From an uncultured bacterium (GTDB lineage Bacteria > Oederibacteriota > PGYV01 > CAWJRG01), in the NCBI GenBank assembly GCA_963845185.1, contig CAWJRG010000010.1, positions 416,001 through 480,000 of the forward strand: 64,000 nt of DNA, read 5' to 3'. Below are positions 27,363-35,692 of the stretch, one piece after another. Made by a program: the position numbers and the translations under genes. The notes below the pieces were generated by a model that did not search any database, had not been told where the DNA came from, and worked only from the letters and a program-made list of their open reading frames with translations. The first letter of the stretch is position 1, and each line of letters opens with the position of its first letter.

Positions 27363-28361
27363 TTAATTCGACCACCACACGTTGTTATAATTAACAGTGA
27401 CGTTAGTTCCTGCTATTACCCACATTTCATTGTTATACACTACACTCGTATGGCCCACTCTCGGGCTGAATCCCGCGTTTCCTGTCGTTTCAGTCCAGTT
27501 TGTTCCGTCGCTCGAATGCCATATGTCATTTAAAAAACTGCTGCTTCCATTTTGCCCTGCTATCACCCACATTTCATTGTCAAATACCAGAACCGTAGGA
27601 GCTATCCGTGCGCCAAAATTCGCGCCGGACGTTGCCTGATTCCATGTTATTCCGTCACTTGAACTCCACACATCACTTAAATAAGTGGCGCCGTCGAGCC
27701 CTGCCGCTATCCACATCTTATTGTTATAAACCACGCTCACAAAATAACACCTTGGGCTGAAGCCTCCTGAAGCCGTTGCCCGCACCCAGTTTACTCCGTC
27801 GCTTGAGCTCCATGCATCACTCAAATAGCCGGTGGAAATGCCATATCCGCTTATTACCCACATCGCATTATTATATACTACGCTTGCATGCCCGTTTCTG
27901 GCAGAAAATGCCGCTGCCGTCGTGGTGCAACCCCAGCTTATACCGTCGCTTGAATACCATACATCGTTTAGATAGCCTCCGGTAAAGCCACCTATCACCC
28001 ACATTTCATTATTAAACACAACGCTTGTGTGTAATTTCCTTGGGACAAACCCTGCTGCTGCCGTCGCCTGGTTCCATGTTGCCCCGTCGCTTGAGCTCCA
28101 TACATCACTTTTCAGGCCGCCCGAATCATTGCCGGCTATCACCCACATTTTATTATTTAACACAACGCTCGTGTGGGCATTTCTTGCGCTAAAAAGCGCC
28201 GCAGAAGTTGCTTTTGTCCAGTTAAGGCCCGGGACCGGGGTATTTGTAGGCGTGGCTGTTGAGGCAGTCGGCGGCGCAGTAGGTGTTTTTATTTTCCTGC
28301 ATGCGTTTGCCAAAGTTAAAATAATAATTACTAAAAATATTGCCGTCAGTATTTTTTTCAT
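27363..28361 (-). CDS. Lipoprotein with Kelch-like beta-propeller repeats
   Basis: Lipobox-like ANAC; six F..R..H.SVV.NN.MWVI.G...DVW.S.DG repeats. Confidence 0.85.
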   Translation of the reverse strand: MKKILTAIFLVIIILTLANACRKIKTPTAPPTASTATPTNTPVPGLNWTKATSAALFSARNAHTSVVLNNKMWVIAGNDSGGLKSDVWSSSDGATWNQATAAAGFVPRKLHTSVVFNNEMWVIGGFTGGYLNDVWYSSDGISWGCTTTAAAFSARNGHASVVYNNAMWVISGYGISTGYLSDAWSSSDGVNWVRATASGGFSPRCYFVSVVYNNKMWIAAGLDGATYLSDVWSSSDGITWNQATSGANFGARIAPTVLVFDNEMWVIAGQNGSSSFLNDIWHSSDGTNWTETTGNAGFSPRVGHTSVVYNNEMWVIAGTNVTVNYNNVWWSN

Positions 28362-28974: not shown

Positions 28975-29108
28975 TTTTTAACCTTCCCATTTTTTATTTA
29001 AATAAAGTATATAACAGTTTCTTCCGTTTGTCAAAGCCAAAGCATTTTCGATATTGTCTTTATTAGTGTGTAATTTCAATTCTATTATAATTAGAAAGAG
29101 AAACCCCT

Positions 29109-29249
29109 TCTCTGAAAAGGCTTGTCAAGCACAAATCCAAGTATAAGGGCTAAAATGTTAATTAACCTTCTCTTCGCCGCAGTTCTTTTCACCCGGCATT
29201 ATAACAAATCAAATTAAGGCCCTCTAACCTCTCCCACAGCCCAGAAGAT
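29109..29249 (-). ncRNA. Putative bridge RNA / seekRNA in the downstream non-coding end
   Basis: Contains GGGAGAGG (target match, 29228-29235) and AGAGAAGG (circle-junction match, 29166-29173), each followed by TTA. Confidence 0.7.
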
Positions 29250-30299
29250 TTACTGACTCAGGGGAAAACAGAGCGGCCTATAAGTATATTTTTTATATAT
29301 CCTTTCTTCATAACCACGATTTTCTTTGAGCATTTTAAATATTATTTCTGCCATGTGCCTTGCAACTGCTATTATTGCCTTGTTTGAACCTCTGCGGCTT
29401 TTTACGTTCAAGTATATTGATTTAAAATACAAAGAACTTCTTACCGCTGTCCAAGCTGCTTCTACAAACGCACATTTTAAATGTTTGTTTGCCTGCCTTA
29501 TTATCGGACCTCTATGTATTGTTTTATTACTCGCATATTCGCTTGGAACCAATCCGGCATATGACGCTAATCGTTTTGCCTTAGAGAATCTATTTATATC
29601 AACTATTTCAAACGCCACTACCTTTGAAAGAACTTCTCCAAATCCAGGTACCGTCTTTATTATTTCCACATATCTATCTTTCCCTGTCATTTCTTTTGCA
29701 AGTTTTTCTGTTGCCTTTATTCCTGTATTAAGTTCGTCCACCAAATGCATCTCGAGGTTCAGCAATTCACGTTCGCTTTTTACCAGTTCGACTCTTTCTA
29801 TTGTGTCCCTGCCTTTTTTCCCAAACAAATCGCTGTGTACGCTTGTATCTATATGGTTCCTTGTCAATAACTGGTGCACCCTATTTTTTACAGCTGTCCG
29901 TGTGCTCACCAGGAATTGCCTCTCTCTTAATATGTTCTTCTTAAGCCTTATTTCCTTCGACGGCACATATACTTCCGGTATTAAATTTGCTCTCAACAAA
30001 TGGGCCAATATCTCCGAATCCCTTACATCGTTTTTTATCTGGCTTTCCGCTATCGCTCTCAGCTTCTGCGCATGCGCCAATTTTGTCTTTACGCCGAGTT
30101 CCTCCAAAAGGTCGTACACTACTCCCCAGCAGTACGTTGTCTCAATTACCGCTTCGCATTCCTCTCCAATCTCAGCCAGCATTTTCTTAAAATCCTCTGT
30201 CCTGTTTGAAAGAGCTCCTCTAAATCTGACTTGACCTTCTTTTGTCACCGCTGTAACATAAGACACGTTCTTGTGCACGTCCACACCAAGATACAACAT
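29250..30299 (-). CDS. IS110 family DEDD recombinase/transposase
   Basis: LGVDVHK, VIET, KNDVRDS (DEDD), TVPGFG, SYAGLVPSEYAS, AIIAVAR; AGGAGG RBS. Confidence 0.95.
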   Translation of the reverse strand: MLYLGVDVHKNVSYVTAVTKEGQVRFRGALSNRTEDFKKMLAEIGEECEAVIETTYCWGVVYDLLEELGVKTKLAHAQKLRAIAESQIKNDVRDSEILAHLLRANLIPEVYVPSKEIRLKKNILRERQFLVSTRTAVKNRVHQLLTRNHIDTSVHSDLFGKKGRDTIERVELVKSERELLNLEMHLVDELNTGIKATEKLAKEMTGKDRYVEIIKTVPGFGEVLSKVVAFEIVDINRFSKAKRLASYAGLVPSEYASNKTIHRGPIIRQANKHLKCAFVEAAWTAVRSSLYFKSIYLNVKSRRGSNKAIIAVARHMAEIIFKMLKENRGYEERIYKKYTYRPLCFPLSQ

Positions 30300-30542
30300 A
30301 CGGCACCTCCTAGGTTTTTAATGTTGTGGGTGCTAACACACGCCACGTTACCATTATACCTGGGGGTGCCTTCTTTTCATATTACCTCTCCCTTGATGGG
30401 AGAGGGACAGGGTGAGGGTGATAATTCCTATATTTCCTCCGCCCCCTCTCTCTTACTCTCTCCCTCAAGGGGCGAGAGTCTGTTTGTTTTTGAAATTACA
30501 CACAATAGTGTACACTAACGCATCTTCAAGGCAAATATTATA

Positions 30543-33500
30543 TTAACGAATCACGAATATCGTGCCCATTTTTAATATATCGGACTTTAACTTGATTATA
30601 TAATAATACACCCCTGGAGATACTGGGCTGCCGTATGAATTCCTGCCGTTCCAGTACACATCCGGAGTCTGCGCCGTCAGTGAAATTACAAGCTCCACTG
30701 ATATTGTGTAAATGTATATGTTTGCGCCGATAGGCAGGTTGATGATTTTTAAAGTCCCATCAAATGCTTTGCCGGGGCTGAAAGGGTTGGGATAAATAAT
30801 AATGTCACCAATGGGATATGGAGTAGGTGTTGGCGTGATTGTAGGCGATATTGTTATAGTGGGCGTTATGCTTGATGTGGGTGTTTGTGTTGAAGTAATC
30901 GTGCCGGTCGGCGATATTGTATAAGTTGGGGTCGGGGTAAACGTTTCCGTTATTGTTAATGTCGCTGTGTCCGTATAAGTAATTGTATAGGTTGACGTCA
31001 CGGTATAAGTCGGCGTTAATGTATAAGTCCGTGTTATTGTAGCAGTGTTTGTACTTGTGCTTGTAGTTGTGGCGGTGTATGTATTTGTATATGTGCATGT
31101 AGGAGACTTTGTGTTTGTATAAGTTGGCGTCGGGCTGGCGCATGCGCCGAATTCCTGGATTCTGTAATTGTATGTATCTGCAATATATATATTGCCGTTG
31201 CTGGACACTGCTACTGCTTCAGGCCAATTAAACTGCCCGGCACTGCTTCCAGCACTGCCCCATTGTGTTATATATACCCCGCTTGATGTGAATTTCTGTA
31301 TCCTGTTGTTGTTCATATCTATCACATATATGTTCCCGCTGCTGTCCGTGGCTATTCCAGTAGGATCATTGAACTGCCCTGCCCCGCTCCCGGCGCTGCC
31401 CCATTGTGTTATATATACACCGCTTGATGTGAATTTCTGTATCCTGTTGTTCACCATATCAGTCACATAAATATTTCCGCTATTATCAATGGCTATGTTA
31501 ATAGGTGAATTAAATTGTCCATTACCGTTACCAAGACTTCCCCATTGTGCTAAATAATTTCCGGCCGAATCAAATTTTTGTATCCTGTTGTTAATTGTAT
31601 CCGCAACATACACGTTTCCGCTGCTGTCCGTGACTAATCCGTGGGGAGTACTGAATTGCCCGTTGCCGCTTCCAGCGCTGCCCCATTGAGTTATATATGC
31701 TCCGCTTGATGTAAATTTCTCTATCCTGTTATTCCAGCTATCCGAAACATAAATATTGCTGCTGCTGTCCGCGGTTACTCCGCAAGGATGATTAAACTGC
31801 CCGTTGCCGCTTCCAGAACTACCCCATTGAGTTATATAACTTCCACTTGAAGTGAATTCCTGTATCCTGCTATTGTCTATATCCGCCACATAAATATTGC
31901 CGCTGCTGTCTACGGCTAAATTCCACGGAGAATTAAATTGCCCATTGCCGGTTCCCAAAATACCCCATGCCGTGATAAAACAGGGCGGTGGTACAGCTTC
32001 CGGTGTATTGGTTGGCGTTATGGACATAGTGTTTGTCGGTGTCTCTGTTTGAGTTATTGTTTGTGTTATTGAAGGCGTTGCCGACAAAGTGGGCGTCGGG
32101 CTGAGGCACGCGCCGAATTCTTCCATCCTGTAATTGCCCCCGTCTGAAGCATAAATGTCTCCGCTGCTGTCCACTGCTACTCCGTTAACACCTTCAAACT
32201 GCCCACTGTTTGTTCCAGTACTGCCCCACTGCGTTATATACGCGCCCGTGCTGCTGAATTCCTCGATCCTGTTATTCCCGTCGTCTGCAACATATACGTT
32301 TCCGCTGCTGTCCACTGCCACTTCCACAGGATAGTTAAGCTGCCCGTCGCCGCTTCCGGGATTTAAATATGAACTTCCAAACTGGGTAATATATGCTCCT
32401 GTGCTGCTGAATACCTCAATTCTGTTATTATTCAGGTCTGCGACATACACATCCCCGCCGCTGCCCACTGCTATTCCGTAAGGATAATTAAACTGCCCGT
32501 TCCCGGATCCAAGGCTTCCCCACTGTGTTATATATGTTCCCGTGCTGGTAAATTCTTCAATCCTGTTGTTGCTGGAATCTGCTACATACACGTTTCCGCT
32601 GCCTGATATCGCTACTCCATGGGGTTGGTTTAACCCTCCGCCCCATTGTGTTATATATGTTCCTGTGCTGCTGAACTCTTCGATTCTGCCATTGGTCCAG
32701 TCTGCAACAAATACATTTCCGCTGCTGTCTATTGCCATTCCGGTGGGGCCTCCAAACTGGCCGTTGCCGCTCCCGCCGCTGCCAAATTGCGTTATATACG
32801 CGCCTGTGCTGCTGAACACTTCAATCCTGTTATTAATTCCATCCGCAACATACACGTCCCCGCTGCCTGATACTGCCACTTCCCATGGGACTCCAAACTG
32901 CCCGTTGCCGTTTCCATAACTGCCCCATGCCCTGATAAAACAAGGCGCCCCGGGCGCTGTCGTGCTTGTCGGCGTCGGGGTTATATTGCACGGTCCGAAT
33001 TCTTCAATCCTGTTGTTTGAATAATCGGAAATATAAATATCCCCACTGCTGTTTACTGCCACTCCATAAGGATTGCGGAACTGCCAGTTGCCGTTTCCGG
33101 GACTGCCCCATTGCGTTATGTATGTGCCTGTGCTGCTGAATTCTTCGACCCTGTCAAGAGTGGAATTATTTTCCGCTACATACACGTTTCCGCTGCTGTC
33201 TATTGCTATCCCTACAGGGTTAAGAAACTGTGCGGGGTCGCTTCCATAACCGCCAAACTGTGTTATATACGCGCCCGAACTGCTGAATTCTTCGACCCTG
33301 TCATTGCTTGAATCTACTACATATACGTTTCCGCTGCTGTCTGTTGCTATCCCGGTAGGTTCAATAATCTGCCCGTTGCCGCTTCCATAACTGCCGAATT
33401 GGGTTATGTACACGCCAGTGCTGGTGAATTTTTCGATCCTGTCATTACCGCCGTCCGTAACATACACGTTTCCGCTGCTGTCTGTTGCTATTCCGTTGGG

Positions 33501-35692
33501 ACGGACAAACTGCCCGTCGCCTGCTCCATGACCGCCCCATTGTGTGATATATGCGCCTGTACTGCTGAATTCCTCTATCCTGAGATTACCATAATCTATG
33601 ACATATACGTTCCCGCCTGCGCCGACTGCCACTCCAACAGGGTTGATAAACTGCCCATAGCCGGATCCGGAAATTCCCCACTGGGTAATATACGCTCCTG
33701 TGCTGCTGAATTCCTCTATCCTGTTATTACCAGAATCCGCGACATACACGTCCCCGTTGCTGTCTGTTGCTATTCCTTTAGGGCCATAAAACTGTCCGTT
33801 GCCGCTCCCGCCGCTGCCCACTGCAGTAATAAAACATGGCGTCGGCCCTGATACTAAAGTGGCAGTATTGGTCGGCATCAAAGTAAATGTGCCTGTCGGA
33901 GACACTACAGGCGTGTCTGTCAAAGACGCAGTCGGTGTAAACGTGTCCGGCGGGGTAGGCGTTATGGAAGGAGTATCTGTCACAGATACTACAGGAGTAT
34001 TTGTCATTGTCGAGCCGGGCGGCACTGGCGTATCTGTCTGGGTTGTTGTCGGTACGCACAAGCACATTATATTAGTCCATGGGGATAATATCGGGCATAT
34101 TATGGAACTGTCAGGCGATGATTCTGTTTGAAATATGATACTATACGAAAACAGGTGCCACCCGCCCCAGGACCCGGCGCCCAGCAGTTTGCTGGGGCAG
34201 TTGCGCCCGGACCTCCAGCGCTTGTGTCGCCGTAAGTCACTGTTATCTGCCCTGTATTGGCAGCCAGGCCCGCAACCTCAACTGTTATATTGCCTCCGCT
34301 TACGCTTGAGCTGACCAGAGTCCCGCTGTTTACTGTTACTGTAAAATATCCCGGGTCAGTAGTTGTTGCGCTCGGCGTGTTCCATCCTGTCCCGGACATT
34401 GTTATTATTAAAGTCCCGTATCCGGGCAAGCTCGCCATGTGTCAGGCCCTGCTGTATAAGTAAAAACAATCGTATTGCCAGTGCTTCCCGCACAAAATGA
34501 TGCCGGGTTTACAGCTATGCTCCCCTCGCCGATACATTGCGTTTGTGTCACAGTTGGAGTGGACGTATTCTGCGGAGTCTCTGTTCCGGTAAATGTCTGT
34601 GTTACAGGCAGCGTGTTTGTCGGAGATACTATGGGTGTGTTTGTCAACGACGCAGTCTGCGTCGGCGTATCCTGCGGAGTCGGTGTTTCGGTAAATGTCG
34701 GCGTCATAGAAGGCGTGCTTGTTGCCGATACAACAGGCGTTATTGTCGGGCTTGGGCATGTGCCGAATTCCTGTATCCTGTAATTTAAAGTGTCTGCAAC
34801 ATACACATCCCCATTGCTGTCTATAGCTATTCCGTCAGGATCATTAAACTGCCCGTTGCCGCTTCCTTCACTTCCCCATTGTGTAATGTATGCGCCTGTG
34901 CTGCTGAATTCCTGTACCCTGTAATTGCCGTCCACGATATAAACATCCCCGCTGCTGTCTATTGTCACTCCGACAGGATGATTAAACTGCCCGTTGCCGT
35001 ATCCCTGGGTGCCCCATTGTGTTATATAATTGCCTGAACTGTCGAATTCTTCGATTCTGTTATTATATTGGTCCAGGACATACACGTCCCCGTTGCTGTC
35101 TGCTGCTATTCCCGTGGTTATATTAAACTGCCCATTTCCCGTTTCCAATGCCGCCCCATTGTGTAATGTATGCGCCTGTACTGCTGAATTCCTGGACCCT
35201 GTTATTATTCGAGTCAGTTACATATATATACCCGCTGCTGTCTATTGCTATCCCATAAGGGGACCAAAACTGCCCGTTGGCCTGACCTCCGCTTCCCCAT
35301 TGTGTTATGTAATTGCCCGAGCTGTCGAATTCTTCGATTCTGTTATTATCCAGGTCTGCAACATACACATTCCCGCTGCTGTCTATTGCCAGTCCTTCAG
35401 GGTCCATAAACTGCCCGTTGCCGGTTCCATAACTGCCCCATTGTGTAATATATGTCCCTGTGCTGCTGAATTCTTCTATTCTACTGTTTACTGAGTTGTC
35501 TGCAACATACACATCCCCGCTGCTGTTTATTGCTATCCCATTCGGGGAATCAAACTGCCCGTTACCGCTTCCGTAAGTTCCCCAGCTGAGAATATAACAG
35601 GGCGGGGCAGTGCCTGCGAATAAATTATTTGCCGCGAAAATAAATGACAATAACAAAATTGTGGTTATTATTTTTGCCTTACTTTTGCCCAC
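30543..35692 (-). pseudogene. Large secreted NHL-repeat protein (4 x 6 blades, Thr/Pro linkers, PNP-type Ig-like CTD), split by 3 frameshifts
   Basis: Four consecutive ORFs join after single-base corrections near 35138, 34435 and 34148 (about 1716 aa); may be intact if these are sequencing errors. Confidence 0.8.

Follow-up and report, generated by a model that had tools for sequence, protein, structure and literature searches.

RNA-dependent target choice has been published for the insertion sequences ISEc11, ISPa11, ISKpn4 and ISEc21 (PMC11187229), and 93% of IS1111 elements have a two-loop bridge RNA predicted in their right end (PMC11208160). In IS1111 seekRNAs the match to the top strand is described as preceding, on the 5′ side, the one to the bottom strand, and ISEc21 has the reverse order (PMC11187229). 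Subterminal inverted repeats of 7–17 bp are given for the IS1111 subgroup. The locus analyzed here lies in a 64,000-nucleotide stretch (the window) from an uncultured bacterium of the Oederibacteriota (GenBank assembly GCA_963845185.1, contig CAWJRG010000010.1, positions 416,001–480,000), and its layout is a short left end, a recombinase gene, and a guide RNA in the right end. It was read as an active or recently active IS110-family element of IS1111 layout that would move by the mechanism proposed below, with a probability of about 0.88 for this reading as a whole.

With ISEc11, ISPa11 and ISKpn4 the element has in common a DEDD recombinase of 330–350 aa, a long non-coding region past the gene, subterminal inverted repeats, a circle-junction promoter (predicted here), and short RNA segments matching both target strands with the top-strand match placed 5′, and it resembles ISPa11 in landing in a repeat hairpin (repetitive extragenic palindrome, REP) (PMC11187229). 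It differs from this group by Ser-Asn in place of Ser/Thr-Gly, by a short interrupted repeat, and by an RNA that starts inside the coding region. Likeness to IS621 extends to a target loop and a donor loop, each with a same-sense guide spanning the core, to the DEDD + Ser catalytic set, and to recombination at a short core beyond which nothing is duplicated (PMC11208160, PMC11208158), whereas the IS621 RNA is located in the left end ahead of the gene, its loop guide order is reversed, its core is CT, protein likeness is recognizable in the C-terminal half only, and a second donor guide was not found here. The IS1111 predictions of Durrant et al. 2024 agree in the right-end RNA and in 8–14 nt pairing to target and donor, but, compared by text description, their donor-binding bases often lie in a multi-loop (PMC11208160), whereas both loops here are plain internal loops with their own closing stems. 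REP-targeting Pseudomonas elements of the ISPpu9 type likewise occupy one position of an extragenic palindromic repeat in many copies and have a small RNA gene past the transposase gene, but differ in host lineage, repeat family and target word (PMC12288879).

The element itself is uncharacterized, the kind of system was first described in 2024, and every feature matches published IS110/IS1111 elements, leaving the picture of how such systems work unchanged. REP-targeting IS110-family elements were reportedly described by Tobes and Pareja in 2006. With its exact ends, its empty sites and a target word of 10 nt, the locus adds to the natural RNA-guided recombinases one whose limits are fully defined, and it does so from an uncultured lineage that has been little studied. 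Its parts are compact (349-aa protein, ~120-nt RNA), and, as such elements are under development as genome-insertion tools, they are useful starting material.

Element boundaries and insertion sites

A search of the 11 contigs (3.50 Mb) of the genome that the window comes from gave five full-length copies and one 220-bp fragment. Four of the five are 100% identical across all 1282 bases, and the frame of the fifth is broken, one nucleotide being deleted at position 279 and one inserted at 1041. AGG bounds both ends in 5/5 copies. The element comprises 1279 bp plus one extra core (1282 bases including both cores); in recombinase orientation AGG is followed by the element start TAATATGAAAAG, and the element end CCTTTTCAGAGA is followed by AGG, corresponding to CCT on the plus strand at 29106–29108 and 30385–30387. 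Deletion of 29109–30387 gives back the plus-strand palindrome cccctctccc-ttgat-gggagaggg, and two paralogous empty sites (C10:+218755 and C9:-346651, on two contigs of the genome) align gap-free over the junction and are nearly identical across it for ~130 and ~100 nt. Since both unoccupied repeats read through the junction without a gap, the ends of the element are exact. When filled and empty sites were compared, the only bases common to both ends were the 3-nt core, with no other target duplication. The subterminal repeats are 7+3 bp, interrupted, and start 5 and 4 nt inside the cores, at the lower limit of the IS1111 range, and are longer in relatives (for example ~13 bp in locus L128). 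The non-coding part measures 141 nt past the stop codon (TAA, 29252–29250), versus 85 nt ahead of the start.

The left flank ends in GGGAG in four copies and AGGAG in one, and the right flank starts with GG in four and GA in one (sites in order: GGGAG/GGGAG/GGGAG/GGGAG/AGGAG - AGG - GG/GG/GG/GA/GG). The window copy (copy 1) and copy 3 are situated in a 37-nt repeat hairpin module and copy 2 in a degenerate hairpin, whereas copies 4 and 5 are situated in unrelated non-hairpin DNA. Because these last two share just the word, with no hairpin, the sites indicate that the aim is set by the ~10-nt word GGGAG-AGG-GG and not by the hairpin as such. Unoccupied GGGAGAGGGG occurs seven times in the genome, against 1.6 expected from base composition, and two of the seven sites are paralogues of the window's flanks. 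The 37-nt module (CACCCTCACCCT, then the hairpin CCCTCTCCC-loop-GGGAGAGGG; window 30385–30421, plus strand) was found at >30 other places dispersed over all large contigs (BLAST; query positions 107–144 in >30 of 65 matches, 60 of them listed). It supplies the word many times, and the hairpin therefore acts as the usual landing pad, a pattern already known from Pseudomonas and E. coli.

An initial annotation of this DNA had stated that removal of the element restores a hairpin, which the excision and the two empty paralogous sites confirmed. It had also described the element as aimed at a multicopy repeat hairpin; the hairpin does stand as the usual landing site, but it is the word that sets the aim, with copies 4 and 5 elsewhere. 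The mapping of other genomic copies, which it had proposed as a check, yielded the five full copies, all at sites carrying the GGGAG/AGGAG-AGG-GG/GA word.

Structure of the predicted guide RNA and guide-to-flank matches

The right end was compared with 80 genome and 80 metagenome loci encoding relatives of 36–48% identity, plus one of 56%. About 150 loci of the clade were found, in genomes that carry the labels Elusimicrobia, Chloroflexi, Rhizobium, Omnitrophota, Actinomycetota and others. Past the stop codons of the relatives the DNA follows a common plan: a stem leads into a variable stretch, a small hairpin, another variable stretch and then UU or AU, after which the stem's return strand closes the unit, and a second unit of like build comes directly next. 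A covariance model (R1) was built from 23 seed RNAs, the window RNA among them, and matched 77/80 genome loci and 76/80 metagenome loci, plus L008 and the window; it thereby recovers the RNA in 153/160 relatives across many phyla. Each locus gave a single match, which in every case lay directly past the gene and on its strand. Among nine loci with distant recombinases (29–36% identity) none was matched (0/9). Over the 64-kb window R1 gave a single match (29156–29280, 67.9 bits, E 2e-15), and an Rfam search returned no family for the RNA at these positions. A strict stem filter was passed by 41/171 loci, of which two (L110, L175) were false.

Base pairing was assessed in a plain, structure-free MAFFT alignment of 23 RNAs (A2) and in a 77-row alignment fitted to the model (A4). 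In A2, 87.9% of cells were paired, compared with 37–52% with slid partners, and both-side changes were seen in 15/22 pairs; the corresponding values in A4 were 92.1%, 37–46% and 22/22. The closing stem of the target loop (helix 1) was 98–99% paired, with both-side changes in 6/9 pairs (A2) and 9/9 pairs (A4), and its inner hairpin (helix 2) was paired in 67% (A2) and 83% (A4) of cells, with both-side changes in 4/4 pairs. For the donor loop, the closing stem (helix 3) was 93–96% paired (both-side changes 3/4 in A2, 4/4 in A4) and the inner hairpin (helix 4) 81–85% paired (2/5 in A2, 5/5 in A4). The RNA begins in the coding region, whose last 29 nt (29278–29250) contain its first stem as well as the opposite-strand target guide.

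In each unit the same-sense guide is the stretch next to the return strand on its 5′ side, and the opposite-strand target guide directly follows the 5′ strand of the first stem on the 3′ side. In the relatives, the guide of the first unit equals the locus's own left flank plus core, for example GTATCAGA (L023) and TAGCGAGG (L107), and the guide of the second unit follows the right end plus core, which differs between loci, for example ATGGAAGGA, AGAAAAGA and ATAGGAGT. Counted over 140 non-identical RNAs with matches of at least 8 nt, first-unit guides matched their own upstream DNA in 61/123 cases versus 51/2937 mismatched pairs, and second-unit guides matched their own downstream DNA in 72/127 cases versus 154/2848 mismatched pairs. 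The opposite-strand target position complements the core plus the locus's own right flank, with a mean score of 7.3 (21 loci) versus 4.3 (420 mismatched pairs); four loci (L008, L101, L154, L150) were left out of this test, as by eye the match to the right-end repeat was not the element end. In the window, CCCCU (29264–29260, top-strand match) lies 5′ of GGGAGAGG (bottom-strand match), and the order is the same in 21 relatives. By our own arithmetic, an exact 8-mer is expected by chance ~0.002 times over ~134 positions for each same-sense segment.

The target-matching GGGAGAGG (29235–29228) and donor-matching AGAGAAGG (29173–29166) noted in the initial annotation, each followed by TTA, are exact as claimed, and the 141-nt non-coding end downstream of the transposase has that length. 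Comparison of homologous ends with their flanks, also proposed there, found guide positions matching their own flank or end far above mismatched pairs, and the assignment to IS1111-type RNA-guided elements is supported by the family match, the covarying two-loop RNA, and these guide-to-flank matches. Placement of the RNA in the 141-nt end holds for both noted guides, but the first stem and the opposite-strand target guide fall in the coding region. The opposite-strand guides had been left unassigned; the target one is now CCCCU (29264–29260), and the donor one is without support. The recombinase had been called probably uncharacterized, which is true of the element but not of the kind of system. 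A GGGCUG/UAGCCC stem had been proposed to enclose both guides and is not supported: GGGCU forms the 3′ arm of the target loop's inner hairpin, the model match does not reach UAGCCC, and each loop is closed by its own stem, GGCCgCUCU/AGAGGGCC and UUAAUU/AAUUAA.

Proposed mechanism and promoters

The mechanism is carried over from experiments on IS621, ISEc11 and ISEc21. The element would exit as a circle in which the right end, a single core and the left end are joined, and a promoter at this junction would drive a single transcript that covers the recombinase gene and runs on into the RNA, the latter being trimmed later. Recombinase dimers would bind both loops, the first pairing with both strands of the chromosomal 10-nt word GGGAG-AGG-GG and the second with the circle junction, and Ser257 and the DEDD site would exchange strands at the core. 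Joining of the ends is predicted to build a TTGACA-17-TAATAT promoter, the 14 nt past TTGACA plus the 3-nt core giving the 17-nt spacing; a hexamer spacing of 16–18 nt was seen in 12/19 relatives examined.

A terminator-like hairpin (29101–29123, minus strand), made of the right subterminal repeat and the core/flank followed by a T-rich run, exists in the inserted state only and could stop read-through transcripts at the edge of the element.

Recombinase and affiliation

The single long minus-strand reading frame of the region encodes the recombinase. Pfam models PF01548 (DEDD_Tnp_IS110; residues 4–147, 69 bits) and PF02371 (Transposase_20; residues 212–296, 76 bits) matched, as did the NCBIfam equivalog NF033542, 'IS110 family RNA-guided transposase' (221.5 bits, cut-off 140). 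Protein relatives numbered 1039 at E ≤ 1e-40, and in an alignment of 31 of them (A1) D7, E53, D91, D94 and S257 were invariant; their equivalence to D11, E60, D102, D105 and S241 of IS621 is by family position, not by direct alignment of the N-terminal half. The motif GLVPSEYASN, compared with GL-P----S(t)G of IS1111, keeps GL, P and S and has Asn in the place of Gly. Closer protein relatives are 60–73% identical, and among 99 genomes of the phylum just one other holds a relative of >50% identity. Two other IS110-family genes of the genome (C6:73825-74841 and C9:363013-364002) are 28–29% identical, and neither has an R1 match next to it.

The element is IS1111-like in its layout, its size, its subterminal repeats and the order of its guides, and a pairwise comparison with a named relative (25% identity, 94% coverage) hints the same way. 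It is unlikely that it is instead a member of the true IS110 subgroup or of a deep branch of its own that is IS1111-like in layout only, with a relocated IS110-type bridge RNA. The NCBIfam model names the broad IS110 family only, identity to the sole named IS1111-group recombinase found, an ISEc11-family plasmid gene that is also the nearest named relative, is just 25%, and the subterminal repeat, at 7+3 bp, is about as short as the range allows; Siddiquee et al. moreover mention IS110-type branches with a downstream non-coding region (PMC11187229). However, the ISEc11 alignment covers 94% of the protein, whereas the solved structures of IS621 and ISCro4 match residues 177–328 only; the length of 349 aa and the GL-P motif point to the IS1111 type, as do an RNA placed downstream and the order of the guides, and subterminal repeats reach ~13 bp in relatives.

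Table 1. Positions of the element, its RNA and guides, and adjoining features in the window
Feature	Position	Strand	Basis or remark
Whole element, AGG core at either end	29106..30387	-	Five same-ended copies and gap-free empty sites
Recombinase gene, 349 aa, RuvC-like DEDD domain and Tnp domain	29250..30299	-	Pfam, NCBIfam
Left subterminal inverted repeat TGAAAAG(aa)GGC	30368..30379	-	Read from sequence; inverted relative to 29113-29121
Right subterminal inverted repeat GCC-TTTTCA	29113..29121	-	Read from sequence
Bridge/seekRNA-like two-loop RNA, R1 match	29156..29280	-	Covariance model
Target-loop closing stem (helix 1), 5′ strand GGCCgCUCU	29270..29278	-	Pairs with 29218-29225; inside coding region
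Target-loop closing stem (helix 1), 3′ strand AGAGGGCC	29218..29225	-	Covariation
Target-loop inner hairpin (helix 2) AGUC...GGCU	29238..29259	-	Covariation
Donor-loop closing stem (helix 3), 5′ strand UUAAUU	29212..29217	-	Pairs with 29158-29163
Donor-loop closing stem (helix 3), 3′ strand AAUUAA	29158..29163	-	Covariation
Donor-loop inner hairpin (helix 4) GCCG...CGGC	29176..29197	-	Covariation
Same-sense (bottom-strand-pairing) target guide GGGAGAGG	29228..29235	-	Equals left flank + core, exact; then TTA
Opposite-strand (top-strand-pairing) target guide GUUUUCCCCU	29260..29269	-	CCCCU (29260-29264) pairs with AGG + GG
Same-sense donor guide AGAGAAGG	29166..29173	-	Equals right end + core; exact against 29113-29106; then TTA
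Tentative opposite-strand donor guide UUAUAAUGCC	29195..29204	-	Would pair with GG + TAATATGA of left end
Outward-facing -35 hexamer TTGACA, right end	29123..29128	-	Read from sequence
-10 hexamer TAATAT, very start of left end	30379..30384	-	Read from sequence
Weaker resident promoter-like site ATGAAA-16-TATAAT	30353..30380	-	10/12 consensus matches, consensus only; precedes recombinase gene
Remainder of target hairpin ctccc-ttgat-gggagaggg	30388..30406	+	Missing 5′ part is 29104-29108
Left part of ~159-bp host repeat split by the element	29066..29105	+	Right part is 30388-30503

Evidence against the reading and alternatives

Several results weigh against the reading of an active RNA-guided element. 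On the RNA side, the script that selected the 23 seed RNAs accepted perfect closing stems only, so that helix 1 in the 23-RNA alignment is partly selected, and alignments derived from R1 are model-fitted. The 141-nt non-coding end folds no better than shuffles when taken by itself (z +0.67; z -1.95 with the coding tail added), and public runs list none with RNA for the element; production of the RNA and its binding by the protein are predictions. The window's opposite-strand target guide pairs over just 5 nt, versus 7–10 in most relatives, a length that agrees with GG being the sole conserved right-flank bases in the five copies. In the protein, Asn follows the catalytic Ser (Asn258 codon 29529–29531, minus strand), where IS621 has a Gly that helps to hold the Ser loop (PMC11208158). 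Public DNA contigs contained no circle joint or empty-site joint; they derive from three runs of one study, in short low-depth pieces, and are uninformative. On the donor side, a best-duplex scan for an opposite-strand guide scored 5.7 for own versus 5.4 for mismatched pairs, the complement of the left-end hexamer was present in 6/61 own loops versus 7.4% of mismatched pairs, and an exact-match test on the whole donor loop gave no own-versus-mismatched signal. Since left ends are much alike among relatives, these left-end donor-guide tests are low in power.

In the window, UUAUAAUGCC forms the best duplex with the junction top strand, in the same register as in L008, yet with 1 mismatch and 2 wobbles. 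The inner hairpin loop of the donor unit holds UGAAAAGAA, a 9-nt identity to the left subterminal repeat that was seen in the window only (1/60 loci). The clade may be a compact three-guide variant, in which the RNA reads both target strands but a single strand of the right end, and the left end is read by the protein via the subterminal repeat and not by base pairing; this idea is unlikely. If it were true, the donor side would be only half programmable, and the RNA would be a minimal one of ~120 nt overlapping the coding region.

In L148 and L128, the same-sense donor guide extends 2 nt beyond the core, and there it agrees with the insertion's right flank instead of the left end; this extension resembles the 'handshake' positions of IS621.

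It is also unlikely that the copies are fossils of past movement, either the Ser-Asn recombinase as it now stands or the RNA, with a guide of 5 nt, having become inactive. The replaced Gly, the one frameshifted copy and the one relic, and the public contigs of low depth without circle or empty-site joints are in its favor, but four copies are identical over 1282 bp with the Asn codon included, which points to this exact sequence having moved recently. Neither the reading frame nor any motif is damaged, and the Ser itself is invariant. As Asn follows it in the window and its three closest relatives and Gly, Ser or Ala elsewhere, Ser-Gly is not fixed in the clade.

That the protein reads a DNA hairpin, like REP-associated or IS200/IS605 enzymes, with the right-end matches as by-products, is most improbable: three of the five copies and the relic do lie in hairpin repeats and RNA expression is here predicted only, but copies 4 and 5 share the word without a hairpin, guide positions follow unrelated, non-palindromic flanks in relatives, the matching segments are placed in the loops of a covarying RNA, and RNA dependence has been shown experimentally for ISEc11, ISEc21 and IS621 (PMC11187229, PMC11208160).

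Host repeat and neighboring sequences

The relic (C10:481955-482175, ~2 kb past the window end) is a decayed left end of 220 bp at 92% identity that has lost its start codon; the hairpin around it is a similar one, and its junction reads GGGAGATG. In the window, the element splits a ~159-bp host repeat that is edged by a perfect 14-bp inverted repeat (GTGTGTAATTTCAA / TTGAAATTACACAC) and holds two G/C-rich hairpins, and that looks like a small non-autonomous mobile element. BLAST showed several longer genome copies of it (matches spanning 110–200 query nt), and its right-hand end is also present at both empty sites, in C9 and in C10. For the host repeat and its 37-nt module, all Rfam matches were sub-threshold (Whalefall-1, 21 bits versus a threshold of 37, and several microRNA precursor models).

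Two neighboring genes, neither of whose products is related to the element, encode repeat proteins on the minus strand: a 1174-aa secreted protein (30543–34067) with many near-identical ~45-residue repeats (...NNRIEEFSSTGAYITQWG...) and Thr/Pro-rich linkers, and a 332-aa lipoprotein (27363–28361) with ~47-residue repeats (...SDVWSSSDG..W...).

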